A DNA stretch of 37,796 nt from a virus (lineage: Duplodnaviria; Heunggongvirae; Uroviricota; Caudoviricetes): positions 1 through 37,796 of the IMG/VR virus record IMGVR_UViG_2897375277_000008. The stretch is one strand, 5' to 3'. Made by a program: the position numbers and the translations under genes. Shown here piece after piece: positions 2,579-35,774 of the stretch. The notes beneath the pieces were generated by a model. It made no database searches, was not told where the DNA came from, and saw only the letters and a program-made list of their open reading frames with translations. Numbering within the stretch: the first letter of the stretch is position 1; each line of letters begins with the position of its first letter.

Positions 2579-2707
2579 CTAGGTCTCGGACTTTGTACCG
2601 CTTATCTTGTCTTCAAAAATCAGCTCGCATCCTGCACAGTTCAGCGCATTACGTTGTAGATCTGTGTTCTGGTCATTTATTGATACGCGTACATAGCCAA
2701 TAAGCAT
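2579..2707 (-). pseudogene. pin: Truncated Gin/Pin/Hin-type serine invertase (N-terminal ~40 codons only)
   Basis: Minus-strand translation MLIGYVRVSINDQNTDLQRNALNCAGCELIFEDKISGTKSET-stop matches the invertase N-terminus including the catalytic-serine region, then hits a stop at codon 43 and no further invertase-like sequence follows. Confidence 0.75.
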
Positions 2708-2733
2708 AGTGGCTCCCTCTGACAAAAGCAGGA

Positions 2734-3312
2734 ATGATGCCATTTGCTCGTTATTTCTGCATTTTCATAAACGTTGGTTTGGGAGAAGGCTCTGCATTAC
2801 CGGTTGGGGTGCCTGTTCCGTGGCCTTCAGCCACTCCGCCAACAGGCTGGCTGAAATGCAATGGTGCGGCTTTTTCTGCTGAAGAATACCCGGAACTGGC
2901 AAAGGCTTACCCGACCAATAAATTGCCTGATTTACGCGGTGAATTTATTCGTGGCTGGGATGATGGACGTGGAGTGGATGCGGGGCGAGCCTTGCTAAGT
3001 CTTCAGAATGACTCTTTTGAAGCTCACAGGCATGAGTCCTTTTTTTACGCGGGTATTTCACGCAATGAAACACCATTAAAAAATCTTCCAAGTTCAGACG
3101 AGATGCTGACTTTAAGTTCCACAACTAATGCCTTGTCCCCGGACAGTATTGATGCCACCAATTCGTTAATTGGTAATGATGATTACAACTGTCTGATTGA
3201 AGGAAATAAAAATAACAAACGAACGGCAACGGGGTTGAGTACCAGTATTGTCGGTGCAGCAGAGACACGCCCACGTAATATTTCATTTAATTACATTGTG
3301 AGGGCTGCATGA
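2734..3312 (+). CDS. Alternative tail-fibre C-terminal cassette (silent in this orientation; no own start)
   Basis: ORF contains PVPWPSATPPTGWLKCNGAAFSAEEYPELAKAYPTNKLPDLRGEFIRGWDDGRG, the classic phage tail-fibre C-terminal motif; real coding starts at the crossover site around 2776. Confidence 0.7.
   Translation: MMPFARYFCIFINVGLGEGSALPVGVPVPWPSATPPTGWLKCNGAAFSAEEYPELAKAYPTNKLPDLRGEFIRGWDDGRGVDAGRALLSLQNDSFEAHRHESFFYAGISRNETPLKNLPSSDEMLTLSSTTNALSPDSIDATNSLIGNDDYNCLIEGNKNNKRTATGLSTSIVGAAETRPRNISFNYIVRAA
2762..2787 (+). other. Inversion crossover site (gix/pix-like), left
   Basis: 26-bp site ttttcataaacgTTggtttgggagaa; right half-site and central TT identical to the reverse complement of the site at 4598..4623. 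Confidence 0.7.
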
Positions 3313-3914
3313 TGTATAACGCCATCTTAAATAATAAATTTATTGCCACAAAGGCAGGAGAGATTACCGTTTATAACTATGACAGTGAGACACGGGAGTA
3401 TATTTCTGCATCAACTGAATATCTTGCTGTGGGTGTCGGTATCCCTGCATATTCCTGTTTAGATGCTCCTGGCACACATAAGGTTGGTTATGCAATCTGC
3501 CGTTCGGCAGATTTAAACTCATGGGAATATGTGCCAGACCATCGCGGTGAAGTTGTCTATAACACCGAAACGGGAGAATCAAAAGAAATCACAGCTCCGG
3601 GTGATTACCCTGAAAATACAACCACTATCGTCCCGTTAACGCCATACGATAAATGGGATGGTGAGAAATGGGTGACAGATACTGAGGCACAGCATAGTGC
3701 CGCAGTAGACGCGGCAGAAGCACAGCGCCAGTCGCTGATTGATGCTGCAATGGCTTCCATCAGTCTGATTCAACTGAAATTACAGGCCGGGCGGAAGCTG
3801 ACGCAGGCAGAAACAACCCGACTTAACGCCGTGCTGGATTACATTGACGCGGTGACGGTAACAGATACCAGCACCACGCCGGATGTCATCTGGCCTGAAC
3901 TGCCGGAGGCGTAG
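3309..3914 (+). CDS. Tail fibre assembly protein (alternative cassette)
   Basis: 201-aa ORF directly after the alternative fibre cassette; C-terminus ...[12 protein letters not shown] is Tfa-like. Confidence 0.7.
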
Positions 3915-4314
3915 GCCATTCAATATCGGGTGCTGTTGAAGTATCAACACGCATCAGCAGCACACGGTATTTCTTCCATTTGGTGAGAGTTGAAGTTTCT
4001 TCATCAGTTGCGATATCAGCATCAACAGCATCCTGACGCCAGGATATTTCACTGTCAGCTTTTTCCCGTAATTGGGATTTTTTAACTTCAGCAATAGCTA
4101 TTAATTCCTTTTTGGTCGGCTGAGGAATATCTATCAGTGCTGGTTTTCCATTCAGTGTTCCAATCTGTTTTCCTGGTAGAATATCCGTAAATAACTTTTT
4201 ATGTTCTTCCTCACTGACTATTACACCATCATCAGGCCACAGACCTGATGCCTCAAATTTTTCTTTCTCCGATATGGGGAAAAAGCCATTTGCTTTAGCG
4301 CTCCATACGTACAT
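3886..4314 (-). CDS. Tail fibre assembly protein (expressed cassette)
   Basis: 142-aa ORF after the tail-fibre gene, C-terminus ...[15 protein letters not shown]; converges on and overlaps the other tfa by 29 bp. Confidence 0.7.
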
Positions 4315-4315
4315 A

Positions 4316-4900
4316 TCAATACCCCACCGCTATAATGTCCACATTAAATCCCCCGGGACCTGCCTGCCAGATGCTGGCCCCTGTTAATGATTTTGTTTGA
4401 TGAACAACCGCCACATTTGCTGGCGATTGTGTTTCAGTTGTTACAGTACCGATATCATTCCAGTTAATTGAGATGGAATAGTTCGTTGTTGTAAACGACC
4501 GGGGGAAAGTTATGTGTCTTACATTGGTGCCGACAGGAAATCCAAGATAAACACGCTGAATTATCATTCCTCCAGGTAACATAACCCAGTTAGCACCTTC
4601 TCCCAAACCAAGGTTTTCGAGAGCTGTTTTCACCGTGCCATCCGATTTGATATCGCCAAACGGATTCTTGCGGCTTAACAGCAGCGCACGAAGCGCGGTA
4701 AGCAACTGGTCGTGCCGCGCCTTCTCCAGGCTGGCACCGGAGGCCTCCACCACGCTGCAGAGTTCTTCCTGCAACATGTCAAAGTAGTCATCATCCAGAT
4801 CGGTGGCAGGCGTGCCTGTCTGGGGGTTACCACGGGTAAAACCGTTCTTACCCGGGCCGAACTTATCCTTCTGCGCGGTTTTCGTGTCTATACGATGCAT
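4316..4900 (-). CDS. Tail fibre protein (constant N-terminus joined to current variable C-terminus)
   Basis: 194-aa ORF between the YmfQ-like gene and tfa; crossover site lies inside it at the LENLGLGEG codons. Confidence 0.65.
4598..4623 (-). other. Inversion crossover site (gix/pix-like), right, inside the tail-fibre gene
   Basis: Plus strand ttctcccaaaccAAggttttcgagag; reverse complement shares TTGGTTTGGGAGAA with the left site; both sites encode the shared GLGEG peptide. Confidence 0.7.
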
Positions 4901-4903
4901 GGA

Positions 4904-5488
4904 TTACTCCGGATATTTAAAAATTACGTAGGTATGCGACGGGCAGAGTTTGTTAAGCACACATTCGACGACGGTGTCGCCCCAGACACGCAGCGCGGAA
5001 TCACAGGGATCGCCACATGTCATCCAGGTGGTGTTGGTGGCGGCTGGCATGTTGACCTGCCAGTAATACCGCCATTCCGGCGCATTCACCGCGTCAGTAC
5101 AGGCAGATGAGCAGGTGAAAGTGCTTTTATCGTATCGCGTGATGGTGGCATCCGGTCTGCCCAGGGCAGCAAGCTGTGCAAGGTAAAAATCCTCATTGAT
5201 GCCGCCCGCCAGATTAACCTTCGCATCCAGCCGTTGCTGACGCTGGCGAAGGGTCTGCGTTCCCGCCGGAATACATTCATCCGGCAGGCCGCACAGACGC
5301 TCCCAGCGGTTTATCAGTTCAGTGGTGGTGCGCGGATCCAGCTCCCGCATCAGGGCATCCGCACGCTGATGAACGCGGGTTAATGACGGTGCCGCACCGG
5401 CAATCGCCGGATCGCTGACTGACCACGCCGGACCGGGCGGCAACAGTGCCGACAACAGACGGATATAATCATCGTTTGTCACGTCCAT
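4904..5488 (-). CDS. Tail/baseplate protein, YmfQ-like (Mu gp48-like)
   Basis: 194-aa ORF between baseplate J and tail fibre; family recalled from e14/Mu. Confidence 0.6.
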
Positions 5489-6537
5489 GAAATCGTCCCC
5501 AGAACTGCCAGCTCATTTTTTGCAATGGAGATATTGTCCGCCGGGGCAAGCAACTGATGGCTGTATTCCCCGTTCGCACCGGAAATCGCTTCACTGATAC
5601 GTGACACCTTCAGTTCTCCCTGCGGATAACCATCACGCAGCAGGAACGAACGCAACTCCGCGGTGATGGCGGCTCGTATTTCCGGTGTATCCGGCGTCAC
5701 ACGGATATGAAAATCCACTTTATGCGCCACCGGCCTGAATACATACAAATCAGAGCCTGCCACCGGGGCCAGTGGCTCGATATGTTGTCTTGCCGCCGTT
5801 TCCGTTGATTCTTCCGGAATGGGATTAATCAGGTCACTGCTGGCAATCATCACACCGACAGTTCCCGTTCCCATCCAGTGACGGTATGTCCATGCGCGGG
5901 TAATGCCGGGCACTTCTTTAGCCCAGACGACATAGTCCCCGTCAGCCCCGCCCTGAGGCGTCCAGTAATACCGCTCAATGACGCGGGCGCGCCACGTTTC
6001 CAGCTCTTCAGTATCAAATCCACCTGTCAGGGTATCTGCCACGCCGGAAGACGGCAGACCATTCACCGGCGTGACCAGGATTAATGACGTACCGTCGTCA
6101 GCGTTACCGACCGCGCCTGCACTTGAGCAGGCGATCGGCACGCGCAGGACACCACCGGAGCTGGTTGCATCGGCAGTTGCCGTGTACTGAACCAGGTCAT
6201 CGCGCTGAATAACACTCCCGGCGGTCACCTTCAGGCCATCGCTGACACCTTCCCAGCGCATATACCCGCTGGCAGTCGTGGCCCCCTTGCGCGGACACCG
6301 TTTCATCGCAGCATGTCGCGCCAGCCAGGACTCATCGCACAGGTCAGGCAGCATGTTCATTGCCAGATAATCGATGTACCCGTAAACCGTATGCAGCGCC
6401 GCCGCATACACCTTTGCCCGCACGTCTTCATCCATGCGCCGGAGCGTGTCGCTGACGTCCAGCCTGGCGAATAAATCGTTACGGAGCATACTGATATTTT
6501 CTGCCAGCGTCGGGCGCTGAAATTCACTGTCCGCCAT
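5479..6537 (-). CDS. Baseplate J-like protein
   Basis: 352-aa ORF in baseplate cluster; position and size fit Mu gp47 / P2 gpJ. Confidence 0.7.
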
Positions 6538-6952
6538 GCATTATCGCACTCCACAGATCATCAAAAGAAATCATTACCGGTCCGTCACGACGCCAGAGAG
6601 TGATACTGTTACCCAGTTCATTAATCCCGGTGCGGCGGATATCCAGATCAATACGGGACACCACACCGTCATCAATCATCCATTGCAGGCATTCGCGGAT
6701 ATACCCCCTTACCGTCTGCACCAGCTGATTGGTCAGTTTGCCGCGCTGAAGCAGCCACAGCCGGGAGCCGTAACGGTCATTCTGTACCGCAGGCCAGGTA
6801 TCCCCCCACCATCCCATCGGGACGTCGGCATTGTCATCAGGCTCCGCCCGCCGCCAGGTAAACAGGGAAATCACCACGGCGCGGGTCAGCGGATCCAGCG
6901 GTGCGCTGGCGCAGGTGCGTTTACCGTTCACCGTCAGCCACAGTTCCATCAT
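6524..6952 (-). CDS. Baseplate protein, Mu gp46-like
   Basis: 142-aa ORF overlapping neighbours in the baseplate operon. Confidence 0.55.
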   Translation of the reverse strand: MMELWLTVNGKRTCASAPLDPLTRAVVISLFTWRRAEPDDNADVPMGWWGDTWPAVQNDRYGSRLWLLQRGKLTNQLVQTVRGYIRECLQWMIDDGVVSRIDLDIRRTGINELGNSITLWRRDGPVMISFDDLWSAIMHGGQ

Positions 6953-7497
6953 GCCTCCATCGCTTTATCCGGTTTGTCGGTGTTACTGCCCTGACCGTTC
7001 TCTCTGTGACGATGGCCGTTATAGGCAAGCCGCATCGCTGACATGGTGGTGCCGCCGGAGTCGCACAGGTCTTTCACCTGTCCGGTCACTTCCAGGTCCA
7101 TTTCAAAACGTGCTTTAGGTGAATTGCGAAACGTGATCGTTTTACCTGCACCGTCCACCACGATCCCCTCCCGGGTCAGCGTCACGGACTGCCCCTGATC
7201 GTCATAGACAGCCACCTCACCCGTCTGCAGCCCTTTCAGGCGGTAGCGCCGGTCCGACACCGTAACAACCACCGCATGAGAACGGTCGCCATCCGGAAAC
7301 AACACCACCGCTTCCGCACCGCTGTTTGCCCTTGAGGTAAAACCGTAGGGTTCAAGATGTTCAACCCCTGCTTTGGGTTCACCGGCAATCAGGGACACAT
7401 CCACGGTCTGACATTTCGTGGCGGCACTGATGCTTTTCACCACGGCCCGCCCAATCAGGCCGAGGAGTTGTCGCTGCATGGCTTCAATCGTCCTCAT
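6949..7497 (-). CDS. Baseplate assembly protein V / spike
   Basis: 182-aa ORF MRTIEAMQRQLLGLIGRAVV...; gpV-like N-terminus. Confidence 0.65.
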   Translation of the reverse strand: MRTIEAMQRQLLGLIGRAVVKSISAATKCQTVDVSLIAGEPKAGVEHLEPYGFTSRANSGAEAVVLFPDGDRSHAVVVTVSDRRYRLKGLQTGEVAVYDDQGQSVTLTREGIVVDGAGKTITFRNSPKARFEMDLEVTGQVKDLCDSGGTTMSAMRLAYNGHRHRENGQGSNTDKPDKAMEA

Positions 7498-8576
7498 CAG
7501 AACGGATCCTCCTGTACTCTGGCTTTTTTCTTTTTCCGCGAGCCGGGGGCTTCGGGTTCAGGCAGATAAGCATCAGGCGGGCCGACACGGATTTCCGTCA
7601 GGGTGCCGTTCTGGTCCTGAGTAAACGTGACTTCCGAAACAAGCAGTTCGGTATTGTCGAAACCACAGACCGGATCGAAGACAATCACCCGCTGGTTGGG
7701 CTGCCACAGCGTACCGTTACCCTGTCGCCAGCCCTGCACCACATAGGTGGTTTCATCCGTCCGCGCCGCCCGTTGCCGGGCTTCAAAGTCAGCACGGGCA
7801 ATACAGCCTGCCCCCGTGGCCTGCCCTGTCTGCCTGATATACATCGGACGGTAACGGGCAATAAATGCGTCCTCTGTGCGGGCCCGCAGCGCGGTGGTGG
7901 TGGCCTCACCGAAATCATCGTCGTTTCCGGCACGCTGCCCCGCCACCTGGTAAACTGAAAACCGCTCCCGGATACTCTTCTCCGTATCACAGGAAAGGAT
8001 GTTTTCCCCAAGTACCAGCGCGGTATGTGCCCGCGTTGAGCCAATACCGCCAATCACCAGCCTGCCGTGCGGGTCGTCATAAGCCAGCGCCTGCTGCTGA
8101 CCGAGTATTTTGTTGATTACCTCAATCACCGTTTCACCGTGATCAGGCTGGACATCAGGAATAACACCCGACGGCGCACCGCTGTTCACCACCTCAATGC
8201 CGAAAGGCGCAGCAAGCGCCTGCGCAATCTGTACCAGCGATCGTCCGTTAAACTGTGTCGGTTCGGCTGCACAGTCAATCAGGTCAGCGGTCAGACTACG
8301 TCCGGCAATACCGGTGCTGACCGAACGGGCATCGTAACGAACGGGCGTCGCCTCCACCCAGCCAGTGATCACCAGCTCATCACCAATCAGCACTTCCACT
8401 TTTGAACCGTTTTTAATGCGCGGCTGAAGCGTGGTGATACCCTCATCTCCCGGCCACTGGCGGGTGATCTCCACACTGAAATCCCGCGCCAGTCGTTCAA
8501 CACCGGCACCGATGCGCACCGATGTCCAGCCATTCCACTCCCGGCCATTTACCCGTAGCGTGACGTTATCGTTCAT
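7497..8576 (-). CDS. Baseplate hub / late tail protein (Mu gp44, P2 gpD-like)
   Basis: 359-aa ORF between the gp43-like and gpV-like genes; start overlaps upstream stop. Confidence 0.55.
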   Translation of the reverse strand: MNDNVTLRVNGREWNGWTSVRIGAGVERLARDFSVEITRQWPGDEGITTLQPRIKNGSKVEVLIGDELVITGWVEATPVRYDARSVSTGIAGRSLTADLIDCAAEPTQFNGRSLVQIAQALAAPFGIEVVNSGAPSGVIPDVQPDHGETVIEVINKILGQQQALAYDDPHGRLVIGGIGSTRAHTALVLGENILSCDTEKSIRERFSVYQVAGQRAGNDDDFGEATTTALRARTEDAFIARYRPMYIRQTGQATGAGCIARADFEARQRAARTDETTYVVQGWRQGNGTLWQPNQRVIVFDPVCGFDNTELLVSEVTFTQDQNGTLTEIRVGPPDAYLPEPEAPGSRKKKKARVQEDPF

Positions 8577-9943
8577 TGCACTGGCACCTTCAGAGGGATC
8601 ACCGGCACAAAGCCGGGATGCGTAATGGCATTACGCCGGATAATGTCCCCGTCACGCGCCGCGTTATCAAACCAGGTCGCCGCCAGCACCAGCGCGGGTA
8701 AAACCTCATCCGGCGTGCGCTGAATGATCCGTGCAGACTGTTCAAGGCGCGTGTTGATATCCGCATTCAGATCTGCTTTCACCCGGCGCAGCGCCAGAAA
8801 CAGCGCATCACTGGTTGTACGGGACAACTCCTTATCAATTGCCGTATTCAGTGTGTCGCGAATGTCAGTCAGTTCTTCCCACGTTGGCAGGTCAACCGTG
8901 CTTTTCACCGCCGGTGCATTGTTCAGTGCCGGATGCGTGACGGAAGGCCAGCCAGTGCTCTGCGCGGGTGTTGTTGCCTGCCCCACTGCGGCATTCTGCA
9001 TCACCGCGGAAGTTGTTGGCGCAGGCAATCGGGTGACGGCATACGCCGCTTCGCTGATTGCGGTCGTACGAAGGATGCTGGCAACCACGTTACGCTGCTG
9101 TGTCGCCGTGGCGGTGGTTTTACTGTCCGTTTTCCAGACGCCGCGCGGTTGCAGATCGCTGCCAAGGCTGACACCGGAAAGCGTTTTGATCATGGTGACC
9201 AGGTCGCTGGCGTTACCATAAAGGCGTTTCCCGGTACGCCACATTTTCTGCACCTGCTCAACGAAATTTTTGCCTGACGATGGCGGCGGCAGAAGTACCG
9301 AGATATCCCCCTGCAACAGCCTGGCGGCATCCGATACGGCAGAATCCACCACTTTCATCGCATCAGAAACATACCCAAGCATTGTGCCGGCATTACCGAC
9401 GACGTCGTTCTGCACAAAATCTGCCACGCCATCGATACTGAAACTACTGAAACTGTCACTGATGCAGTCATCCAGTGCAGAACAGGATGACATCAGCGTC
9501 TGCGCCGTCGCCGCACCTGATGTGGGGTAAGAGAGTTCTCCCGCTTCGACAAACTTCAGGTCAAAGCGGACAATACGCCCTTCACTCTTCGATGTGCTGA
9601 CCCGAACCTCTCCGTCAACACAGACTTTCAGCTCACCGTAAGTCGGATGGACAAGCGTGCCAGGACCGGGTTTATTCAGCGCGTCAATCAGGCGATCGCG
9701 CTGGTCAAAGCAGTCATCTCCCACCACATAAGCCGTGATGGACGGGCGGAAAGTGATTTTCCCCAGGTCTTCGGTATAGGGTTTGTCGCGGTTCGGGTAT
9801 TCGTGCGTTTCCACACGACGACCGGTTCCCGTACTTTCTTCTTCAACCTTAAACGGCACACCGCGAAATGACGCGTCCTGAAGTCTGTCTTTCCACGTCA
9901 TATAAACTCCGTACATAAAAAATCCCACCGGAGTGGGACTCAT
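8573..9943 (-). CDS. Mu gpN-like DNA circularisation / tail protein
   Basis: 456-aa ORF directly downstream of the tape measure gene, as in Mu-type tails. Confidence 0.55.
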   Translation of the reverse strand: MSPTPVGFFMYGVYMTWKDRLQDASFRGVPFKVEEESTGTGRRVETHEYPNRDKPYTEDLGKITFRPSITAYVVGDDCFDQRDRLIDALNKPGPGTLVHPTYGELKVCVDGEVRVSTSKSEGRIVRFDLKFVEAGELSYPTSGAATAQTLMSSCSALDDCISDSFSSFSIDGVADFVQNDVVGNAGTMLGYVSDAMKVVDSAVSDAARLLQGDISVLLPPPSSGKNFVEQVQKMWRTGKRLYGNASDLVTMIKTLSGVSLGSDLQPRGVWKTDSKTTATATQQRNVVASILRTTAISEAAYAVTRLPAPTTSAVMQNAAVGQATTPAQSTGWPSVTHPALNNAPAVKSTVDLPTWEELTDIRDTLNTAIDKELSRTTSDALFLALRRVKADLNADINTRLEQSARIIQRTPDEVLPALVLAATWFDNAARDGDIIRRNAITHPGFVPVIPLKVPVQ

Positions 9944-9961
9944 TAACAGATTAATTTTTCA

Positions 9962-26564: not shown

Positions 26565-26566
26565 AA

Positions 26567-27562: not shown

Positions 27563-27563
27563 C

Positions 27564-28394
27564 TCAATGAACGGTATCGAGCAGCTTTAACAGCTCAGGG
27601 AATCGGGATTCGAAGAAATGCGGCTGCGTCTCGCGCGGATTTGCAGGACTGGTGATGTTCTTGCCGAACATGCAGCCTTTCGCCGTTAGCGACCAGAATT
27701 TTTTGATGTTGTTAATCGCGGTACGGCTGTATCGTTCGCGTTGTTCAACGATCCCCAGCTTCACCATCTGGTGATATGCCTGATTAGCCGTCAGGCGGAT
27801 ACCATACTGCTTCAGCAGTGCACTCAGCGACAGCGTGGGGCGACTTGAGCCATCGTGTGCATCAGCAGGAGCATCAACGGCATAGCGCGGTGCCAGATTC
27901 GGTAAGCCAACAGCCTCCTGGAGTTTCTGACAGGCCCCAAGCACAGATGAGTTAGACAGGTTTAACTCCCGACGCATAAAGTCCAGCAGAATCACTCCAG
28001 CCTGCATCTTGTCAGCAGCCTGTCCGGATAATTTTTCCGGTGCGCTGGTTACCATGTCGAAAGTACGGATCACCTTCAGATGGAATGACGGGCTGATCCA
28101 CATTGCATAGGCATACACCAGTTCCTTACAGACATACGTCCCCTGATTATTTCCGCCGCGAATAACGTTAACTGGCTCTATATTGACCGAGTTGCAAATC
28201 TGCAACTCGCTTATTAAACGTTCAGTTTGCTCATTGCGGAGCCAGAATGCAGGCTTATGCTTATCCAGAGAACCGGCAGCCCTGTGCAGATCGTTCAGGC
28301 TGTAACGCCCATAAGCATCACGACGAACTTCAATACCATCAATGACCATCAGATTATTCATACTTCGTTTCTCCTCTTGATCAGGCGGCTGCAC
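27564..28394 (-). CDS. KilA-N domain protein (antirepressor-like)
   Basis: 276-aa ORF; N-terminal region ...MVIDGIEVRRDAYGRYSLNDLHRAAG... is KilA-N-like. Confidence 0.55.
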   Translation of the reverse strand: MQPPDQEEKRSMNNLMVIDGIEVRRDAYGRYSLNDLHRAAGSLDKHKPAFWLRNEQTERLISELQICNSVNIEPVNVIRGGNNQGTYVCKELVYAYAMWISPSFHLKVIRTFDMVTSAPEKLSGQAADKMQAGVILLDFMRRELNLSNSSVLGACQKLQEAVGLPNLAPRYAVDAPADAHDGSSRPTLSLSALLKQYGIRLTANQAYHQMVKLGIVEQRERYSRTAINNIKKFWSLTAKGCMFGKNITSPANPRETQPHFFESRFPELLKLLDTVH

Positions 28395-28770
28395 CCGCCG
28401 TTTTCTCGTACTTACTGATAGTGATCTCGACCTTCCCTTCCGGGATAACCGGTCCCCACTCCACCAGCATTCTTTTCACCTGGCTGTCGTCTTCCCACAC
28501 ACCCGCGTGGGTCAGGGCGTCAAACAGTGCCTTGTTATAGTTGTCCAGATCGCGGATCCGGTTATCCGGAGGAAACAACACAATCTCCACTGAAGCAGGT
28601 GCCGACGTTGGTTTCGGCAGACGACGTAACTGCTCAACTATTGCTGCGCACGCCGCGCTCTGGAATTTTCGCCCCGCCGCACTTATCAGGCTCTTACCAG
28701 CAAATGCCCCTTTGTTGGGGTGTCGCCAGTAGGTGTTCACGCTGGGCGGAAAAGGCAGGATCAGCTTCAT
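28381..28770 (-). CDS. rusA: RusA-type Holliday junction resolvase
   Basis: 129-aa ORF MKLILPFPPSVNTYWR... with acidic catalytic residues (…DLDNYNKALFDALT…). Confidence 0.85.
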   Translation of the reverse strand: MKLILPFPPSVNTYWRHPNKGAFAGKSLISAAGRKFQSAACAAIVEQLRRLPKPTSAPASVEIVLFPPDNRIRDLDNYNKALFDALTHAGVWEDDSQVKRMLVEWGPVIPEGKVEITISKYEKTAGAAA

Positions 28771-29093
28771 ACTTTCAGGGCCCTCTCATGTAACCAGTAG
28801 GTTGCACGCAGCCTGGCGTTTTCCTCACAAGCAAGCAGTGCGCGGATAATCCCGACCGCCTCGCTGTCGTCATCCTTCACCGCGGTATGAAGCGTTATCC
28901 CCCGGGCCACGCCACGCTTTATCGTGATGACGCCTTTTTTCTCCAGTGCGCGAAGATGCTCCACCGCTGCATTCACTGAACGGTATCCCAGCATGGTTGC
29001 CACCTCCTGATTGGTTGGCGGAAAGCCACGCTCTTTCTGGTAAGAAATCAGCATATCCAGCACCTGCTGCTGGCATTGAGTTAACGTCGTCAT
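28767..29093 (-). CDS. LexA-N-like winged-helix DNA-binding protein
   Basis: 108-aa ORF ...LTQCQQQVLDMLISYQKERGFPPTNQEVATMLGYRSVNAAVEHLRALEKKGVI...; no peptidase domain. Confidence 0.5.
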   Translation of the reverse strand: MTTLTQCQQQVLDMLISYQKERGFPPTNQEVATMLGYRSVNAAVEHLRALEKKGVITIKRGVARGITLHTAVKDDDSEAVGIIRALLACEENARLRATYWLHERALKV

Positions 29094-29776
29094 GCCGCCA
29101 TCTCCCTGACCAGTTTTTCTGCCTGCTGGCGAACCTGCGCCAGAAAGGCCTCACCACATGCCTCAAGTTCATCGCGCCCGATATAGCTGATTGCCGATCC
29201 CTTCCAGGTCTTATCGAAAACAGCAATAGCACCAGCGAAGAACGCTCCTGTCGGCACCTGCTTCTCATCCTTCGGGATAAACCAGACAGGCAGTTCAAAA
29301 CCAATACGCCCGCGAATAAAAGCAATATGGTCTGCATCTTCCGGCCACCACACTTCGCTGGTGGCAGCTTTGATCAGGAAAACATAGCGCCCGCCCTTAT
29401 CACGCATGGCACTGGCATGTTTCATGATGTAACGCATGCCGGTGATGTATTGCCCCTCATGCTGACTGGCGCGGCTGTATGGGGGATTACCAAAGGCAGC
29501 ACCTTTAAGCTCCGCAAGACGTTCTGACCAGTCATGCGCCAGCGCGTTGTCTTCCGCCGTGTAATACGCAGCACATTTGGTGTTATCACCGTCAGTGAAC
29601 AGATCCAGAACAAACGGGCCAAACAGGGTGTTAATTCCCCAGAAAATGTTGTCCGGCGTGCGCCACTGATCGCCCACTTCCTTCAGTTCATGGGCTGGTT
29701 TGTTCCGCAGTTCCACCAGCGCCTGGCAATATTTATTACTCATTAAGCCCCCACGTAATTCCCTGACAGATACCAC
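29090..29776 (-). CDS. Orphan DNA N6-adenine methyltransferase (phage Dam-like)
   Basis: 228-aa ORF containing the motif FGNPPYS (NPPY catalytic motif); no adjacent restriction gene. Confidence 0.7.
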   Translation of the reverse strand: MVSVRELRGGLMSNKYCQALVELRNKPAHELKEVGDQWRTPDNIFWGINTLFGPFVLDLFTDGDNTKCAAYYTAEDNALAHDWSERLAELKGAAFGNPPYSRASQHEGQYITGMRYIMKHASAMRDKGGRYVFLIKAATSEVWWPEDADHIAFIRGRIGFELPVWFIPKDEKQVPTGAFFAGAIAVFDKTWKGSAISYIGRDELEACGEAFLAQVRQQAEKLVREMAA

Positions 29777-30237
29777 TCTTCACCCGATGCAGCGCGCTTG
29801 CTGCTTTTCCGTAAGCACCGCTCACGACGCGCCAGAAAATTGTTTCGTTCTGGCTGGGAGTGGCTTTCACGGAATGCCGCCATCCACACCGTTGCAGCAC
29901 GACGGTATAAGCCCCTGGACTCCAGTTCTTCAGCCTGGCGGGTCAGGCACAAAATCTCCCGCGGGTCGTTAGTGCCGACATAGAAATTGCGCACAGGTCT
30001 GGTTTCACGAACTGGTTGCGGTTCCGCCTCCTGCGCTCTCTCAGTCAGGCGCGGGAAATGTCTGCGTGTATCCCCTTCACAACGGTGAGCCACACGACCA
30101 CTCTGACGTAACTTGCTTGCTGACTGCAGAACGCGCTGCCGTGAGTAACCTGCAAAAGCATCCGCAATGTCTCCGGAAGTACAGCCCGGATGGGCTTCAA
30201 TGAATTTCTGAACGTCATTCAAAAGACTCATGCTCAC
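29743..30237 (-). CDS. Hypothetical basic protein (possible regulator)
   Basis: 164-aa Arg-rich ORF downstream of the replication initiator. Confidence 0.4.
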   Translation of the reverse strand: MSMSLLNDVQKFIEAHPGCTSGDIADAFAGYSRQRVLQSASKLRQSGRVAHRCEGDTRRHFPRLTERAQEAEPQPVRETRPVRNFYVGTNDPREILCLTRQAEELESRGLYRRAATVWMAAFRESHSQPERNNFLARRERCLRKSSKRAASGEEWYLSGNYVGA

Positions 30238-31175
30238 CCCCTGAATCCTGCCGGGATCTGGCTGTAGTCCACATTGTCGTAACTGGCTTTGAAGTACGGG
30301 TCTTCGCGTTTTTCTGTGTACGTGCTGACGGACGGCGATAAGCGCAGGGAAAGCTCATCCCATTTTTCCCGCAGCTTCGACGGGCTGAGCACGTTACGGC
30401 ACCAGAACGGATCGCGGCTGACGCGGCTGTACATCTCGCAGATTTGTTTGTGAGTACGACCATCCTGCACACACATCAGGCGTATTTCGTTTGCCCATGC
30501 TGTCCAGTTCGGTTCTTTGGGACGTACCACTTCGCCGTCACATTCGGCGGCCTGCTCGTACAGAGCGATGATTTTTTTCCAGAGCCACTGTGCGCAGGTC
30601 AAATCATCCTGCGTCCCCCACTGGCGCTTTTTAGGGCTGAATACAACCGCATCAGGATGGCGAGTTAAAAAATCCTGTTCAGCCGTCTGCGTGTCCGGTT
30701 GCGAAGCGTCCGGACGAGAAGGTTTTTTATCTGACGGATCATGTTTTGATTTTACTGACGGATCCCCGCCAGATTCTGACGGGTGAAAACCCGCTTTTTT
30801 GCCAGATTTCGACGCATCAAATTTTGACGGGTCAGATTTTGATGCGTCAGATTTTGACGGGTCAGAATCTGACAGTTGAGAAAATGCCGCTGCCTGAAGC
30901 TTCGCAACGTTAAGCTGATAAACATTCGACGCATTGCGGTTACCCTGGCGACGCGCCTTACGCGTTAACCAGCCTTCTGCTTCCAGCCGTGCGATAGCCG
31001 TTCTGACGGTACTCATCCCCGCGCCAATCTGACGGGCAATGGTTTCAATTGATGGCCAGCACACACCTTCGTCATTACTGAAATCAGCCAGGCGGGCCAT
31101 AATTGCCACGCTGGATAACTTCATGCCTGATGCAGCGCAACCATCCCATACATAGCCGGTTAATTTAGTGCTCAT
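30234..31175 (-). CDS. Replication initiation protein (O-like, N-terminal winged helix, iterons inside gene)
   Basis: 313-aa ORF; N-terminal HTH-like region; central repeated peptide DPSKSDASKSDPSKFDASKSG encoded by the DNA iterons. Confidence 0.7.
   Translation of the reverse strand: MSTKLTGYVWDGCAASGMKLSSVAIMARLADFSNDEGVCWPSIETIARQIGAGMSTVRTAIARLEAEGWLTRKARRQGNRNASNVYQLNVAKLQAAAFSQLSDSDPSKSDASKSDPSKFDASKSGKKAGFHPSESGGDPSVKSKHDPSDKKPSRPDASQPDTQTAEQDFLTRHPDAVVFSPKKRQWGTQDDLTCAQWLWKKIIALYEQAAECDGEVVRPKEPNWTAWANEIRLMCVQDGRTHKQICEMYSRVSRDPFWCRNVLSPSKLREKWDELSLRLSPSVSTYTEKREDPYFKASYDNVDYSQIPAGFRG
30722..30881 (-). repeat. Origin iterons (about 8 tandem ~15-bp repeats)
   Basis: Repeats of attttgacgggtcag-like units, e.g. 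30822..30836, 30837..30851, 30852..30866, with degenerate copies upstream. Confidence 0.65.
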
Positions 31176-31184
31176 GACCGACCT

Positions 31185-31523
31185 CTATTTCCCTGAATTT
31201 ACGACGAAACTGTTCGAGCGGACTGAAGCATTCATGCTCATAACCTTCGCGGAGGTAGATAACCCGTTGTGTTTCCGGCTCCCAACGAATGACTCTGACG
31301 GGCACTCCGTAGTGATCTTTGAACCAGCGGTTAACTTGTCGCAAAGGACTGTCTCCTTCTGCCGGTTGAAATCCCCCACAGCCCACTCTGCAAAGCTGTG
31401 GGTTACAATTTCCCTGTCACCTGGTACATTCACTGCATAGCAATACTCCACCTTCGCTTTTCCACCCGGAACCGGAAGCGCAATCAGTTGCGAGCGACGG
31501 TAGTGTGTTGTTAAACTGTTCAT
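31185..31523 (-). CDS. Hypothetical protein (e14 YmfM-like by size and position)
   Basis: 112-aa ORF between the CII-like gene and the replication gene; overlaps an alternative-frame 73-aa ORF. Confidence 0.4.
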
Positions 31524-32083
31524 GCGTTAGTTTCTCCACAGTCACGACACGCCACGGCGCCCGGAGCTGCACACTCGCGGGCGTCACTACTTTCTGAAAC
31601 GCAAAAGATTTTGTAGACCAGTGCTGCATGCTCCTGCAGCTTCGAAATTGAGAGGTACAGCTCATCGTTAATTGCTGTCTTCTCATGCGGTTCCACTACA
31701 CCGTCTTCAATTGCTGAACGAATCTGTTTTGAATAACTGCCGATCTGTTCAATGACCTCCAGCAGGCGTTGGTTGATATCGGCGTTGTCCACATCCTCGA
31801 CGTCAGGAAGAGACACAAAGACGCCATTTGCAGACTGCGCCACAGCATCAGCAATGAAGTGAGTGCCACCAGCACGCTGTAAAACCATTGCCCATCCCAG
31901 CGGGAAAATCTGATCGCCATCTGCACGAAGGCGGTTGAATAAAGCGTTTTCTGTTACATCGAGCCAGTCAGCCGCTTCAGCGTAACCACCCGGCAACGCC
32001 GCGATAGTTTTTCTGACAGCTTTCACGTACCACTCAGGCTGTTTTTCTATTTTCCAGTGATGCTTACCCACGATTAGCCTCAT
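31520..32083 (-). CDS. CII-like early regulatory protein (CP76 type)
   Basis: 187-aa ORF directly downstream of cro; family assignment from memory. Confidence 0.5.
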
Positions 32084-32114
32084 CGTTCTGTGGTTAAAAA
32101 TTGAAAGTGTTCTG

Positions 32115-32315
32115 CTAATCTTTCGGATAGATATCCGGTCTTAAGTCAGATTTCGTAATTGCACCTGATGTGTATTGCTCAAGTTTTTTAGCCAGCACAA
32201 AACTGGCTTTTTTATAGCCATTGAAAACCAGCCGTAAGTAGCCAGGTGTTGAGCCAACTTTTCCGGCCAACTCGCCCTGCTGTTCTTTGGTTAAAGAGTC
32301 CCAATACGCTTTCAT
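32115..32315 (-). CDS. cro: Cro-like repressor
   Basis: Start set at the Met of MKAYWDSLTKEQQGELAGKVGSTPGYLRLVFNG... (66 aa) with GGAGG Shine-Dalgarno; track ORF 32115..32618 is over-extended through the operator region. Confidence 0.7.
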   Translation of the reverse strand: MKAYWDSLTKEQQGELAGKVGSTPGYLRLVFNGYKKASFVLAKKLEQYTSGAITKSDLRPDIYPKD

Positions 32316-32405
32316 ACAATATGTACCTCCGGTATACATATTACATGATTGAAATGAACCTTCAAGATACTTGTACCTTAACGGTACAAGGGTTTTAATT
32401 TCGTT
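32316..32405. promoter_or_regulatory. Right operator/promoter region (divergent P_R and P_RM)
   Basis: 19-bp motif ATGTACCTCCGGTATACAT (32321..32339) and perfect 8-5-8 palindrome cttgtacc-ttaac-ggtacaag (32370..32390). P_R on minus: -35 at 32360..32365, -10 at 32338..32343. P_RM on plus: TTGTAC 32371..32376, N17, TTTAAT 32394..32399, about 7 nt from the cI ATG. Confidence 0.55.
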
Positions 32406-33080
32406 ATGAAAACAATCCATGACATCCGGCGGTCTAACGCCAGAAAACTGAGAGATGGTGTTGGCGGGAATTCTTCCTTTGCCACTATGATTGATCGCGA
32501 GCCAACCCAGACCAGCAGGTTTATGGGAGATGGTGCTACTAAAAATATCGGTGACAGCATGGCACGACACATCGAAAAATGTTTCGACCTGCCTGTCGGA
32601 TGGCTCGATCAAGAACACCAGACAACGAACATCACAAAAAAACCTGATGTTTCAATCACTAATAAACAAATCACATTAGTCCCTGTCATATCATGGGTAC
32701 AGGCCGGAGCATGGAAAGAAGTTGGATATTCTGAGGTTGATTTGAGCACAGCAGAAACGTATCCCTGCCCTGTACCCTGTGGGGAAATGACTTATATCTT
32801 GCGGGTGATAGGTGATTCAATGATTGATGAGTACCGCCCGGGAGACATGATTTTTGTCGATCCTGAAGTACCTGCCTGCCACGGTGACGACGTTATTGCA
32901 TTGATGCACGATACAGGTGAAACCACCTTCAAAAGGTTGATAGAAGATGGGACACAGCATTATCTCAAAGCGTTAAACCCAAACTGGCCTGAGCCTTACA
33001 TTAAGATCAACGGTAATTGCTCTATAATTGGAACTGTGATTTTCTCAGGAAAACCAAGAAGATACAAAATCAAAGCCTAA
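32406..33080 (+). CDS. cI: CI-type repressor (HTH plus S24 LexA-like peptidase domain)
   Basis: 224-aa ORF divergent from cro; C-terminal half ...LRVIGDSMIDEYRPGDMIFVDPE...GDDVIALMHDTGETTFKRL... is S24 autopeptidase-like. Confidence 0.85.
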   Translation: MKTIHDIRRSNARKLRDGVGGNSSFATMIDREPTQTSRFMGDGATKNIGDSMARHIEKCFDLPVGWLDQEHQTTNITKKPDVSITNKQITLVPVISWVQAGAWKEVGYSEVDLSTAETYPCPVPCGEMTYILRVIGDSMIDEYRPGDMIFVDPEVPACHGDDVIALMHDTGETTFKRLIEDGTQHYLKALNPNWPEPYIKINGNCSIIGTVIFSGKPRRYKIKA

Positions 33081-33092
33081 TCAATGTTTATG

Positions 33093-33115
33093 AACCTGCT
33101 TCGGCAGGTTTTTTT
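33093..33115 (+). terminator. Intrinsic terminator after cI
   Basis: Stem aacctgc/gcaggtt, loop ttcg, then TTTTT. Confidence 0.7.
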
Positions 33116-33119
33116 ATAC

Positions 33120-33153
33120 TTGACAATGTACCCTTAAGATACATAATGTACCC
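33120..33153 (+). promoter_or_regulatory. Candidate P_L-equivalent promoter with operator motif
   Basis: TTGACA (33120..33125), N17, ATAATG; overlapped by ATGTACCCTTAAGATACAT (33126..33144), same 19-bp pattern as in O_R, plus a second ATGTACCC at 33146..33153. Confidence 0.5.
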
Positions 33154-33314
33154 AAGAGAAACAACAAACAGGCAGGACGCCCACGAAGTAGCCGCCTGGG
33201 GCATATGAAGTCCAGGATGATTCGTTAGCAACAAAAAAGCGCCCTACAGGACGCTTAGCTCTTTAACAATCTGGTCCCCATCAACAAGTAACTGATAACT
33301 TGAGGAGGTGTGAA

Positions 33315-33521
33315 ATGCACAAAACAGAACCAAAAATCGTCGCGCCCGGATACACAAATGAGGAAATTTACGAGTGGATGGCAAAGAAGCTGGCAGCTAT
33401 AAACCAGCTTCGTGAAGTGCTGTCTTATCGACAGGAAACAATAGACTCCTTAAAAAAACTGGATCAGGAAATCACGGTTTTATCACAGGATGTTACTTTA
33501 GATATTGTGCAGACAAATTAG
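33315..33521 (+). CDS. Hypothetical 68-aa protein (first gene after P_L-like promoter)
   Basis: Start at ATG 33315 with strong GAGGAGG Shine-Dalgarno (track ORF starts 33300); predicted helical, not Arg-rich. Confidence 0.5.
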   Translation: MHKTEPKIVAPGYTNEEIYEWMAKKLAAINQLREVLSYRQETIDSLKKLDQEITVLSQDVTLDIVQTN

Positions 33522-33927
33522 GATCCCATTCATTTTCGTCAAAATCATCAAAGTGATGAATTTGTGATCTCCAGTCTCGATAATCTAAAAATTTCTGGGC
33601 GGTTACGCTTATTTTATCAAGCGTGAGTTCATCCTGAATTGAAAGAAGAAGTTCATCAAATTTCATCTCATTAATCTGTTTTGGCATCCAGTGATGCTTC
33701 ATCAGAATAAGGTGAACCAGAGCTTTTTTCCCATTCAACTGATTATAGGGAGTGCCGAATTTCTTCCGGTGCTCATGTAAGACAAGGTCCAGAAGAGTAA
33801 GTAATGTTGCCCTTGATTCAACTTTGCTTATTTCGACTGATGACACTACCCCACTGATTTCAATGCCCCGATACTTTCCAACATTTTCACAGTGGGATTT
33901 GTACAGCGTATAGATATTACCGGACAT
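33493..33927 (-). CDS. Hypothetical 144-aa protein in the immunity region
   Basis: ORF convergent with and overlapping the 68-aa gene by 29 bp; AT-rich; direct repeats in its upstream region. Confidence 0.5.
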   Translation of the reverse strand: MSGNIYTLYKSHCENVGKYRGIEISGVVSSVEISKVESRATLLTLLDLVLHEHRKKFGTPYNQLNGKKALVHLILMKHHWMPKQINEMKFDELLLSIQDELTLDKISVTAQKFLDYRDWRSQIHHFDDFDENEWDPNLSAQYLK

Positions 33928-33942
33928 TTCTTTTCCTTTTGC

Positions 33943-33993
33943 GTTGTTGGGGATAACCAGATTAACCGAATCCTTGTTGTTGGGGAATAACCA
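33943..33993 (-). repeat. Direct repeats upstream of the 144-aa gene
   Basis: gttgttggggataaccag (33943..33960) and gttgttggggaataaccag (33975..33993), 32 bp apart, 16 to 66 bp upstream of the start codon. Confidence 0.55.
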
Positions 33994-34210
33994 GGTCCAC
34001 CTCGCCTGATGTGGCTAAAAGCAGGCACATAACAGCTAAGTATTTTCAACCAGAGAGAATCCTTAGCGTTGTGGTGAATGCGGCTCAGCGCACGCGGGTT
34101 AAGGTTGAGGCTGACAGTCGACCTTCTGTGGATACCCACCCGTCTGGTGTGCAACCTTCGCTAGGCACCGGGAAGCACCCGGCACCACAACTTTATGCTG
34201 TGTGTAGTCT

Positions 34211-34259
34211 TGACGGTACCAGTTTGTACCCTTGCTTCCGGCTGGTACCGTCCTTTTTA
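34211..34259 (+). terminator. Intrinsic terminator-like hairpin
   Basis: 11-bp perfect stem gacggtaccag/ctggtaccgtc with 19-nt loop, then cttttt. Confidence 0.5.
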
Positions 34260-34347
34260 CAAAACAGAGAAGAGCATCACCGGACGACGGGCTCATAACC
34301 CAATCCATCCGGGCGGCAGTCATCGCAGGTGTTCTTCTCTGTTTTGT
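34259..34347 (+). repeat. Long inverted repeat (17 of 18 bp arms, 53-bp spacer) upstream of xis
   Basis: acaaaacagagaagagca (34259..34276) pairs with tgttcttctctgttttgt (34330..34347). Confidence 0.6.
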
Positions 34348-34420
34348 GGAGAAACTAACCGACCTTGCAGGGTCGATATGCAGAGACTGAACAGTTATTG
34401 AAGTAATAAGGTGATCGCAT

Positions 34421-34666
34421 ATGCTTCAAATGTTAACTCTTGAAGAATGGGCTTCTGAAAAATACAGAAGTAATCCTCCAAGCGTTTCCACGTTGCGTCG
34501 TTATGCTAAGCAGAATTTGTTTTGTCCACCGGCAATGAAACAAGGTCGGTTATGGCGAGTGCGTGAGGACGCCGAGTTAGTTGGAGAGCTGGTAACACCA
34601 GTAATTAAGAAAAATGACTCATTACTTTTGCAACGGATTTTGAGTGATGGCAGCCAGACCGCGTAA
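34421..34666 (+). CDS. xis: Excisionase-like protein
   Basis: 81-aa ORF immediately upstream of and overlapping the integrase gene. Confidence 0.6.
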   Translation: MLQMLTLEEWASEKYRSNPPSVSTLRRYAKQNLFCPPAMKQGRLWRVREDAELVGELVTPVIKKNDSLLLQRILSDGSQTA

Positions 34667-35774
34667 GAATAATGTTTCAGTCCCTAACTTATATCCGCTT
34701 TATAGCCGAAAGGTAAATAAAGTCTATTGGCGGTATAAGCATCCAATAACAGGGAAATTCCATGCTTTGGGAACAAACGAAGCTGAAGCTATCGCTATTG
34801 CCACTGAAGCCAATACGCGCCTGGCTGAACAAAGAACCCGGCAGATTCTGGCCATCAGTGACAGGATCGCAACCAGCAAAGGGAAAGCAATCACAACGTC
34901 AACTTGGTTAGATCGCTATCAAGCGATCCAGAATGACAGGCTGCAAAGTGGTGATATAAAGCTCAACACCTACAAGCAGAAAGCCAAACCTGTCTCCTTA
35001 CTTAGAGAACGGGCAGGATTGAAGCTAATTTCAGCTGTTGATGTCCGGGATATTGCACAATTACTTGATGAGTATATTGCCGCTGGGCAACCGAGAATGG
35101 CACAAGTAGTTCGCTCCGTCCTGATTGATGTTTTCAAAGAGGCGCAGCACTACGGAGAAGTACCTCCTGGCTATAACCCTGCATTAGCTACTAAACAGCC
35201 AAGAAGAAAAATTACCCGACAACGGCTGAGCCTCGAAGAATGGAAAAAAATATTCGATATCGCAGATGCCAGCCATCGTTACATGGGAAATGCCATGCTG
35301 CTAGCCTTGGTTACTGGTCAGCGGTTAGGTGATATTTCACGTATGAAATTTAGCGATATTTGGGATGATCATCTGCATGTCATTCAGGAAAAAACCGGGA
35401 GCAAAATCGCCATCCCGCTTTCCCTGCGCCTCAATGCGATTAACTGGAGTTTGCGCGATGTAGTAGCCCGTTGCCGTGACTATGCTGTCAGCCCATACCT
35501 TGTACATTTTTTTCGTACTACTTCACAGGCTGAACGCGGCGCACAGGTTAAAGCCAATACCTTGACTATGAATTTCAGTAAAGCAAGAGATTTAGCAGGA
35601 ATTGACTGGGGTGAAGGTTCTCCCGCAACATTTCATGAACAAAGGTCTTTATCAGAACGTTTGTATAAAGAACAGGGTTTAAATACACAAAAATTACTTG
35701 GTCATAAAACACAACAACAAACCGATCGTTATCATGACGATCGAGGCAAGGGATGGAGCAAAGTAGCGTTGTGA
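34644..35774 (+). CDS. int: Tyrosine integrase, lambda Int family
   Basis: 376-aa ORF; parallels lambda Int as I recall it (…VTGQRLGDISRMKFSDI…, …TFHEQRSLSERLYKEQ…, …LLGHKTQQQTDRYHDDRG…, with the C-terminal catalytic Tyr). Confidence 0.9.
   Translation: MMAARPRKNNVSVPNLYPLYSRKVNKVYWRYKHPITGKFHALGTNEAEAIAIATEANTRLAEQRTRQILAISDRIATSKGKAITTSTWLDRYQAIQNDRLQSGDIKLNTYKQKAKPVSLLRERAGLKLISAVDVRDIAQLLDEYIAAGQPRMAQVVRSVLIDVFKEAQHYGEVPPGYNPALATKQPRRKITRQRLSLEEWKKIFDIADASHRYMGNAMLLALVTGQRLGDISRMKFSDIWDDHLHVIQEKTGSKIAIPLSLRLNAINWSLRDVVARCRDYAVSPYLVHFFRTTSQAERGAQVKANTLTMNFSKARDLAGIDWGEGSPATFHEQRSLSERLYKEQGLNTQKLLGHKTQQQTDRYHDDRGKGWSKVAL

Follow-up and report, generated by a model that had tools for sequence, protein, structure and literature searches.

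The question raised by the 37,796-nucleotide (nt) stretch of viral DNA analysed here (IMG/VR record IMGVR_UViG_2897375277_000008, positions 1 to 37,796; hereafter the window) is whether it holds a complete relative of the e14 element of Escherichia coli K-12, as a first-pass annotation of its sequence had proposed, and whether that relative could still be a working phage. Judging from its open reading frame (ORF) listing and composition, the window is almost entirely prophage, and positions 2579-35774 belong to one colinear element. By homology, this is very probably the full-length genome of a temperate phage from the SfV/SfII/SfIV/e14 group that sits in an E. coli chromosome, with icd almost certainly its integration site. 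Gene content, gene intactness, homologies, the cos junction, a DNA inversion and the map of the e14 deletions were all observed directly. The genes for tail, neck, head and packaging, 24 in all, are uninterrupted, and the recognisable early genes are likewise free of stops.

The relation to e14 was followed by local BLASTN of the K-12 e14 sequence against the window. Six blocks were found, colinear with the window and 89.6-98.1% identical in nucleotides: window positions 33997-35782 (91.2%), 30942-33229 (98.1%), 18926-20663 (97.9%), 4590-6266 (96.0%), 3260-3948 (89.6%) and 2586-3006 (91.2%). Identity being high in these blocks, the proposed kinship with e14 is borne out. At the amino acid (aa) level, identity to the e14 proteins is 97.1% for IntE (375 aa), 97.5% for XisE (81 aa), 99.6% for the repressor cI/YmfK, 100% for Cro/YmfT, 95.1% for YmfL, 99.1% for YmfM, 98.3% for YmfR, 97.4% for YmfQ and 89.1% for TfaE. 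The protein lengths quoted in the first-pass annotation are also right (Xis 81 aa; Int 375 aa, or 376 from a GTG start; cI 224; Cro 66; YmfL 183-187 depending on the start codon; YmfM 112; YmfQ 194).

The e14 backbone corresponds to the window genome minus two stretches. One, 20664-30941 (10.3 kb), runs from the C-terminal part of the O-like replication gene through the N-terminal part of the large terminase gene (TerL); the other, 6267-18925 (12.7 kb), runs from the portal C-terminus through the N-terminus of baseplate protein J. At the borders of these gaps, e14 oweE corresponds to residues 1-79 of the O-like protein (98.7% identical), aaaE to the last 378 residues of TerL (99.5%), beeE to the first 139 of the portal (98.6%) and jayE to the last 281 of baseplate J (92.2%). 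The e14 junctions carry microhomologies of 3-4 bp, ACC and TACC. On this alignment, e14 reads as a doubly deleted relative of a window-type genome. The window prophage is the apparently complete relative and e14 the one reduced by two deletions; the structural, packaging and early genes here have no internal stops.

Outside the six blocks the two elements have diverged. Window positions 33230-33996 have no e14 match by BLASTN, the ymfI/ymfJ region having been replaced, and the e14 cargo genes lit, ymfD, ymfE and mcrA find no BLASTN match in the window, where other cargo occupies the same positions. While e14 carries lit, ymfD/E and mcrA, the cargo of the window comprises a GmrSD gene interrupted by an insertion sequence (IS), a DUF2357 gene and a PDC-M53-like gene pair; the pin invertase gene is intact in e14 and truncated in the window. 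Both elements have Pin-type crossover sites and an invertible tail-fibre segment, and e14 lies at icd, as does the closest known copy of the window prophage, in strain H22. No counterpart of the e14 small RNA (sRNA) C0293 was found in the window: the icd-side cargo region of e14 that holds it found no BLASTN match, and the Rfam scan of the window was empty too. Another sRNA of an icd prophage, NC-SV/svsR (described in a 2026 paper), was considered and set aside, since it belongs to a lambda-like siphovirus, a different phage.

What kind of phage, then, is the complete relative? Its gene order is lambdoid and can be seen directly: int-xis, then cI-cro-cII-O-nin-Q-S-R-Rz-terminase-head-tail. A continuous run of genes on the minus strand spans 4316-32315, cI, xis and int lie on the plus strand between 32406 and 35774, and several AT-rich islands interrupt this arrangement. 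The immunity, replication, nin, Q and lysis genes are present in the order that the first-pass annotation had claimed, as judged by ORFs and Pfam matches. Its assignment of the head to the HK97 type was likewise correct, the major capsid protein (16244-17449; Phage_capsid PF05065, 4.9e-79), prohead protease (17464-18114; Peptidase_S78 PF04586, 1.2e-31) and portal (18092-19333; Phage_portal PF04860, 4.4e-108), adjacent genes on the minus strand in the order portal-protease-capsid, matching the corresponding families. The tail had been called Mu/P2-type; that it is contractile and has a baseplate was right, and the type is narrowed here to Mu, since the Pfam matches are to Mu families. The head and tail matches to Pfam have E-values from 1e-26 to 1e-108.

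The tail genes, again on the minus strand, encode the YmfQ/Mu gp48 protein (4904-5488; Pfam Phage_Mu_Gp48), baseplate J/gp47 (5479-6537; Baseplate_J), gp46 (6524-6952; GP46), V/gp45 (6949-7497), the P/gp44 hub (7497-8576; GpP-like and Gp44-like domains) and the N 'DNA circularisation' protein (8573-9943; DNA_circ_N). These baseplate proteins (4904-9943) are 97.6-99.4% identical in amino acids to the products of SfV orf15-20, annotated in SfV as Mu N-, P- and gp45-48-like. Upstream follow the tape measure (9962-11797), the tail assembly chaperone (11939-12208), the tail tube (12208-12564; Tail_tube), the contractile sheath (12564-14060; Phage_sheath_1, sheath domII and sheath 1C) and a DUF2635/Mu gp38-like protein (14044-14214), and the proteins of 9962-14214 are 98-100% identical to those of SfV. 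Sheath, tube and the homologues of Mu N, P (gp44) and gp45-gp48 stand in the Mu order. The likeness to Mu is limited to the tail and the prophage is not of the transposable type: besides the IS, no MuA/MuB-type transposase is annotated in the backbone, which instead has Int, Xis and an O-like initiator with iterons.

A Mu-type cluster of sheath, tube and baseplate genes with alternative tail fibres could also belong to a domesticated contractile-tail bacteriocin (tailocin) locus, and H22 is a strain known for bacteriocin production. This alternative is very improbable here, as the head, portal, protease, terminase, cos, replication, immunity, integrase and excisionase modules, which tailocin loci are without, are all intact. 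Between tail and head, 14223-16194 (minus strand) holds intact ORFs for a tail terminator, a tail completion/neck protein (PHROG 879, tail completion/Neck1), a head closure protein, a head-tail connector and a 66-aa protein, so named in RefSeq for H22. Beyond the portal lie ymfR (19333-19515), TerL (19527-21260; TerL_ATPase and TerL_nuclease), a P27-type small terminase, TerS (21257-21751; Terminase_4), and an HNH endonuclease gene (21877-22227; HNH), also on the minus strand. The cos junction falls between 21818 and 21819, in the interval between terS and the HNH gene, where the two ends of the linear SfV virion genome (its positions 1 and 37074) fall on neighbouring bases. This order, terS-cos-HNH, is the one known from HK97-like phages in which an HNH protein assists cos cleavage.

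Comparison with phage records by megablast places the genome among the Shigella phages. From the baseplate to the terminase it is 97.0-97.7% identical in nucleotides over about 17 kb to SfII, SfI, SfIV and SfV, and the early region is 95-98% identical to SfIV, SfII and SfV. Nearly all its proteins are 95-100% identical to those of SfV or of vB_EcoM-689R6 (ON470584; hereafter 689R6), a prophage record covering about 77% of the window at 97%. The four Shigella phages, serotype-converting myoviruses of Shigella flexneri, have contractile tails by electron microscopy, and SfI is inducible (PMC3636060); in its tail and head genes SfI is about 97.5% identical to the window. The same report describes a full-length 'e14' of E. 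coli S88 that is 97% identical to the morphogenesis half of SfI, so the family, its mosaicism and its link to e14 are already in the literature.

Mosaicism is evident within this group. SfV is close in immunity (cI 99.1% and Cro 98.5% identical in amino acids) and has the same cos junction. In contrast, its portal, protease and capsid are of another type, 25-28% identical in amino acids or unmatched; the head type of the window is the one found in SfII and SfI (both at the DNA level) and in e14. The head module has been swapped within the family: 16244-19333 is 25-28% identical or unmatched to SfV and 97-100% identical to 689R6, but on either side of it the terminase and tail genes match SfV at 97-100%. 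Phages of the SfV group carry a gtrABC cassette for O-antigen modification, which the window is without; by tblastn, GtrA, GtrB and GtrV of SfV found nothing in it below E = 1. Their integrase is thrW-specific, whereas Int and Xis of the window are of the unrelated icd/e14 type; SfV Int and Xis gave no significant match in the window, and the window Int had no SfV match at E <= 1e-5. Q and the cargo between Q and S also differ from their counterparts in the Shigella phages. Like e14, 689R6 adjoins icd, has an e14-type Int and carries an intact pin and mcrA, but its cI is only 41.6% identical in amino acids over a partial alignment, and its Q-S and icd-side cargo differ from those of the window.

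The closest relative is a prophage of E. coli H22 (NZ_CP120563.1, 2909365-2950330), which is 99.8-99.9% identical over window positions 2312-37796 and has the same cargo at all sites. RefSeq annotates it with e14 names (xisE, intE, ymfK, ymfT, ymfL, ymfR and ymfQ), and the element adjoins icd; at its far end is an icd 3' pseudogene fragment, giving a length of about 41 kb. Beyond that fragment H22 carries a second lambdoid prophage in tandem at icd, with exo/bet/gam and an integrase pseudogene. H22 differs from the window in that its GmrSD gene is free of the IS, its tail-fibre segment has the opposite orientation, the 220 bp at window positions 22806-23025 are absent, and a 141-aa ORF broken in the window is intact. 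A literature search for phage production by strain H22 gave nothing relevant.

As the H22 twin spans about 41 kb, from the icd 3' fragment to icd, the attachment sites are expected to lie outside the window. Positions 2579 and 35774, the limits given in the first-pass annotation, mark instead what is left of pin and where int stops, and the true ends lie beyond the window on both sides. Its claim of AT-rich cargo at both ends and at the Q-S junction was correct as to composition: GC content is 36.1% in the Q-S cargo, 35.1% at 22230-23064, 37.6% at 35925-37796 and 38.5% at 2312-2584, against 53-56% in the backbone. The cargo of the two ends lies just outside those two positions, at 2312-2483 and 35925-37796, and the AT-rich left end inside them is the invertible tail-fibre segment rather than cargo. 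Such sharp changes in GC at module borders, with an IS at the window's edge, could be taken for the marks of an assembly that joined pieces of different prophages. We regard such an artefact as hardly credible: H22, an independent complete genome, shows this arrangement at 99.8-99.9% identity across 35 kb, at least 85% of 25 kb recurs in two more genomes, and the backbone order is common to hundreds. By sampling of the ranked E. coli matches to window positions 13000-37796, we estimate that about 600-800 E. coli records carry at least 50-60% of that region at about 96-97% identity, while K-12-type remnants cover 23% of it; the two genomes at 85% or more are additional to H22. The prophage type is therefore common as well as already described; its backbone offers nothing new, and the element is ordinary save for its accessory defence-like genes.

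A number of points weigh against the element being a complete and functional phage from which e14 could have come directly. The attribution to icd rests on the H22 twin, both attachment sites lying outside the window. Near-identity to SfI, SfII and SfIV points strongly to an inducible phage of contractile morphology, which for this copy is a prediction. With an IS of about 2.4 kb and the extra 220 bp, the estimated size of the element is about 43.6 kb, compared to virion genomes of 37.1-41.5 kb in characterised relatives, and packaging could be compromised by this over-length. The pin gene is truncated, and the small ORF at 22265-22690 and a ymfH-like gene are broken. Neither an N-like antiterminator nor a P-like helicase loader was recognised in the window, in which nut sites were not searched. 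Because identity to e14 varies from block to block (89.6-98.1%) and segments have been replaced, the window prophage appears to be a mosaic sibling of the e14 ancestor, not its literal progenitor.

Under the most serious alternative, the prophage is cryptic: the gene set looks complete, and infectious particles are no longer made, possibly because of over-length DNA following the IS insertion, a lost and unrecognised essential function or regulatory decay. The IS66-family element and the 220 bp, which bring the element to about 43.6 kb against 37-41.5 kb in characterised relatives, would fit this scenario, as would the truncated pin, the frameshifted ymfH-like gene and the broken 141-aa ORF, and the tandem position of the H22 twin, next to a prophage with an integrase pseudogene, suggests that the locus is old and settled. 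Nevertheless, the 24 morphogenesis and packaging genes and all early genes that could be recognised are intact, matching their counterparts in viable phages at 95-100% identity; the cos region is likewise conserved, and the genes that are broken are accessory ones. Cos phages can usually accommodate a few per cent more DNA, as the packaging limits of lambda illustrate. We consider a cryptic prophage unlikely, though by no means negligible, and retain the reading of a full-length temperate phage, for the viability of which the size added by the IS is the main reason for caution.

For this temperate phage we infer regulation, inducibility, particle morphology and any defensive role of the cargo, within the following life cycle. 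The cI/YmfK repressor (32406-33080, plus strand; Pfam Peptidase_S24), LexA-like and self-cleaving, would keep divergent promoters closed by binding TGTACC-type operators. Six TGTACC/GGTACA repeats were found compared to 1.2 expected, located in the cI-cro spacer (32315-32390) and at 33120-33152, and are candidate operators. The spacer proper spans 32316-32405; the second site overlaps a leftward promoter predicted at 33120-33152 (near-consensus TTGACA-16-CATAAT), just after the cI terminator at 33092-33111, both from a promoter and terminator scan. As the candidate operators are shared with e14 and SfV, the three are predicted to be homoimmune.

Upon SOS induction, cleavage of the repressor would free expression of Cro/YmfT (32115-32315), the CII-like YmfL (31520-32071; Phage_CP76), the division inhibitor YmfM (31185-31523), Q and the O-like initiator (30234-31175; HTH_36), all on the minus strand. 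The initiator would act on iterons in its own gene, where Tandem Repeats Finder (TRF) located four tandem 15-bp repeats at 30803-30866 (consensus CAGATTTTGACGGGT); such iterons are typical of lambdoid origins. The nin-type region that follows on the minus strand includes genes named in RefSeq as YfdN/PerC (29743-30237), Dam methylase (29090-29743), RusA (28381-28770), KilA-N (27564-28361) and DUF968 (26567-27556), with a 108-aa LexA-like protein encoded between RusA and the Dam methylase. The Q antiterminator (26202-26549, minus strand; Phage_antitermQ, 5.5e-46) comes next, and proteins of the Q, nin and replication region (26202-31175) are 88-99% identical in amino acids to those of SfV and 689R6.

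Q would then antiterminate at pR'/tR' upstream of the holin gene and give rise to one long late transcript. A consensus scan places a putative pR'-like promoter at 24584-24556 and a putative tR'-like terminator at 24490-24469 on the minus strand, and this stretch (24469-24584), unlike the cargo beside it, is conserved across about 1090 E. coli genomes. The transcript would carry the lysis genes, followed by HNH-TerS-TerL (with cos cut at 21818|21819), the HK97-type head, and the Mu-type contractile tail with its baseplate. The lysis genes on the minus strand are holin S (23990-24316; Phage_holin_3_1, a lambda-family holin in RefSeq), the endolysin (23510-23986) and the Rz spanin (23065-23526; 'lysis protein' in RefSeq). 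The assignment of the endolysin to GH24 comes from RefSeq only, as it had no Pfam match at E <= 1e-3.

Entry into and exit from icd would be the task of the e14-type Int and Xis, a lambda-type tyrosine integrase (34647-35774; Arm-DNA-bind_1 and Phage_integrase) and an excisionase (34421-34666; Exc) encoded on the plus strand. Between cI and xis, the short early-left region holds a 68-aa ORF (33315-33521, plus strand), an ECs1072-family ORF (33493-33927, minus strand) and a ymfH-like pseudogene (34071-34390, plus strand) with two internal stops, annotated as 'frameshifted' in H22 with the same lesion. Matches over 33315-34390 were to PHROG 1744 and 5286, both of unknown function. Scans of the whole window gave no Rfam family at gathering thresholds and, with ARAGORN, no tRNA or transfer-messenger RNA (tmRNA).

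A short tail fibre would determine the host range, its C-terminus and chaperone being exchangeable by inversion of a 1.85-kb segment. The segment (2769-4616, 1848 bp) is the equivalent of the e14 P segment and is bounded by 21-nt inverted repeats of the Pin/Gin type at 2769-2789 and 4596-4616 (AAACGTTGGTTTGGGAGAAGG and CCTTCTCCCAAACCAAGGTTT). The expressed fibre (4316-4900, minus strand; 194 aa) joins a constant N-terminus to a variable C-terminus at the 4596-4616 crossover, its N-terminal 114 aa being conserved with e14 StfP, 689R6 and H22, and its assembly chaperone (3886-4314, minus strand; 142 aa) is an intact ORF. In the orientation of the window, the silent alternative C-terminus (2734-3312, plus strand; 181 residues, 99.4% identical to the C-terminus of the fibre expressed in H22) and a TfaE-like chaperone (3309-3914, plus strand; 89.1% identical in amino acids to e14 TfaE) are cut off from the constant N-terminus. 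H22 annotates the fibre pair as a gp53-like domain protein and a tail fiber assembly protein; NCBIfam added no names for the fibre, lysis or cargo proteins.

Relative to H22 the segment is wholly flipped, and the 99.8% identity between the copies marks this as a recent event. The adjacent pin is only a remnant of its first 41 codons (2585-2707, minus strand; 97.6% identical in amino acids to the first 41 residues of e14 PinE). The H22 equivalent also has 41 codons, annotated in RefSeq as an incomplete recombinase missing its C-terminus. Because pin has only 41 codons in both copies, the inversion must either have been catalysed in trans or be older than the truncation, and the likely agent is a trans-acting invertase. 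Invertase genes of this family carry a Fis-dependent enhancer in their 5' part, and the pin remnant may still contain it.

The three or four AT-rich accessory loci, at classical moron positions, probably serve the lysogen. At the left end, positions 1-2311 (minus strand) belong to an ISEc8-like IS of the IS66 family that is cut by the window's edge and 99.7-100% identical to annotated ISEc8 copies, with tnpA near 1839-2219, tnpB at 1495-1842 and tnpC running off the end. Its terminal sequence, ending ...GTACGCTTAC at 2311, is an IS66-type inverted repeat. From 2312, homology to the uninterrupted GmrSD gene of H22 resumes, and the last 56-57 codons of that gene (2312-2483, plus strand, equal to 1913-2084 of the H22 extract) remain. 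The full H22 protein has the GmrSD_N and GmrSD_C domains and scores 1497 bits as mREase_IV in PADLOC. This GmrSD type IV restriction gene, occupying the slot that mcrA holds in e14, is inactivated here by the IS. In strain IMT5155, an avian pathogenic E. coli (APEC), the GmrSD gene is interrupted about 28 bp away, in the same orientation, by another IS66-family copy (about 95% identical), which suggests independent insertions or a local hotspot.

At the other end, between int and the icd attachment site, lies a gene for a 623-aa protein with DUF2357 (2.2e-9) and a weak PDDEXK_7 match, resembling a PD-(D/E)XK nuclease (35925-37796, minus strand); its start codon is at the window's last base. 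Its upstream partner in H22, just beyond the window (37182-39728 of the H22 extract), encodes an 848-aa AAA-type protein with weak AAA/AAA_5 matches and a PADLOC hit to PDC-M26A (1.8e-15). The two resemble an McrBC-like nuclease/NTPase pair. The slot holds lit in e14 and gtrABC in the Shigella phages. The AT-rich insert of 835 bp at 22230-23064 (35% GC), between the HNH gene and Rz, occurs in one of 5426 complete E. coli genomes (H22) and in no phage record. Its ORF (22265-22690) has an internal stop here and is the one that is intact, with 141 aa, in H22. No third copy in the collections orients the change by which the 220 bp at 22806-23025 are present in the window and absent from H22.

The only part of the element with some potential for novelty is the gene pair between Q and pR', here called A and B, which lies antisense to the late operon. 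A (24645-25580, plus strand) encodes a soluble protein of 311 aa and B (25613-26182, plus strand), 33 bp away, a 189-aa protein with four hydrophobic helices; a hairpin with a 12-bp stem follows the pair. Neither matches Pfam or NCBIfam, and PADLOC assigns them to PDC-M53A (3.5e-17) and PDC-M53B (1.6e-39). The PDC systems are 145 untested 'guilt-by-embedding' candidates (bioRxiv 10.1101/2024.01.29.577857). The pair is thus a two-gene, membrane-associated, PDC-M53-like defence candidate. It is present in four of the 5426 complete E. coli genomes. It returns as a cassette in prophages of many Gammaproteobacteria: homologues of the two genes stand side by side in Salmonella, Enterobacter, Yersinia, Serratia, Xenorhabdus, Proteus and Pasteurellaceae, and B is known in Vibrio, Shewanella and Aeromonas too. 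The Q-holin slot is again its place in Enterobacter prophages, and in Pasteurella multocida prophages it lies directly downstream of cI and co-oriented with it.

AlphaFold models of A and B are confident (pLDDT 81 and 85). That of A is a soluble alpha/beta protein in which an invariant loop at residues 80-101 is poorly modelled, and that of B consists of four long hydrophobic helices. Structure searches of the PDB with both models returned nothing significant, and a BFVD search with A matched four uncharacterised phage proteins and no others. In architecture only, the pair is like lambda RexAB, a soluble protein of about 300 aa followed by a small hydrophobic protein of four helices, borne by a temperate phage. 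Lambda rexAB lies directly after cI, as does the Pasteurella pair, in contrast to the position of the window pair between Q and pR'. Homology to RexA and RexB was rejected (hhalign probability 0.2% for both). We tentatively suggest that A and B might form a two-component phage-exclusion module, an unrelated analogue of RexAB in which A, with a fold unseen in solved structures, would sense infection and B would act as effector, the cassette moving among the lysogen-expressed 'moron' slots of unrelated temperate phages.

There is little new here for phage biology in general, and the practical use of the annotated genome is as a reference for an E. coli prophage that is very common. It also provides a clean illustration of how e14 would derive from an SfV-type myovirus by two microhomology-mediated deletions, and a natural context for three accessory loci: GmrSD and, as candidates, the DUF2357/AAA pair and the PDC-M53-like pair. 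Within this phage family, the E. coli members carry restriction or defence genes where the Shigella members carry genes that modify the O-antigen.

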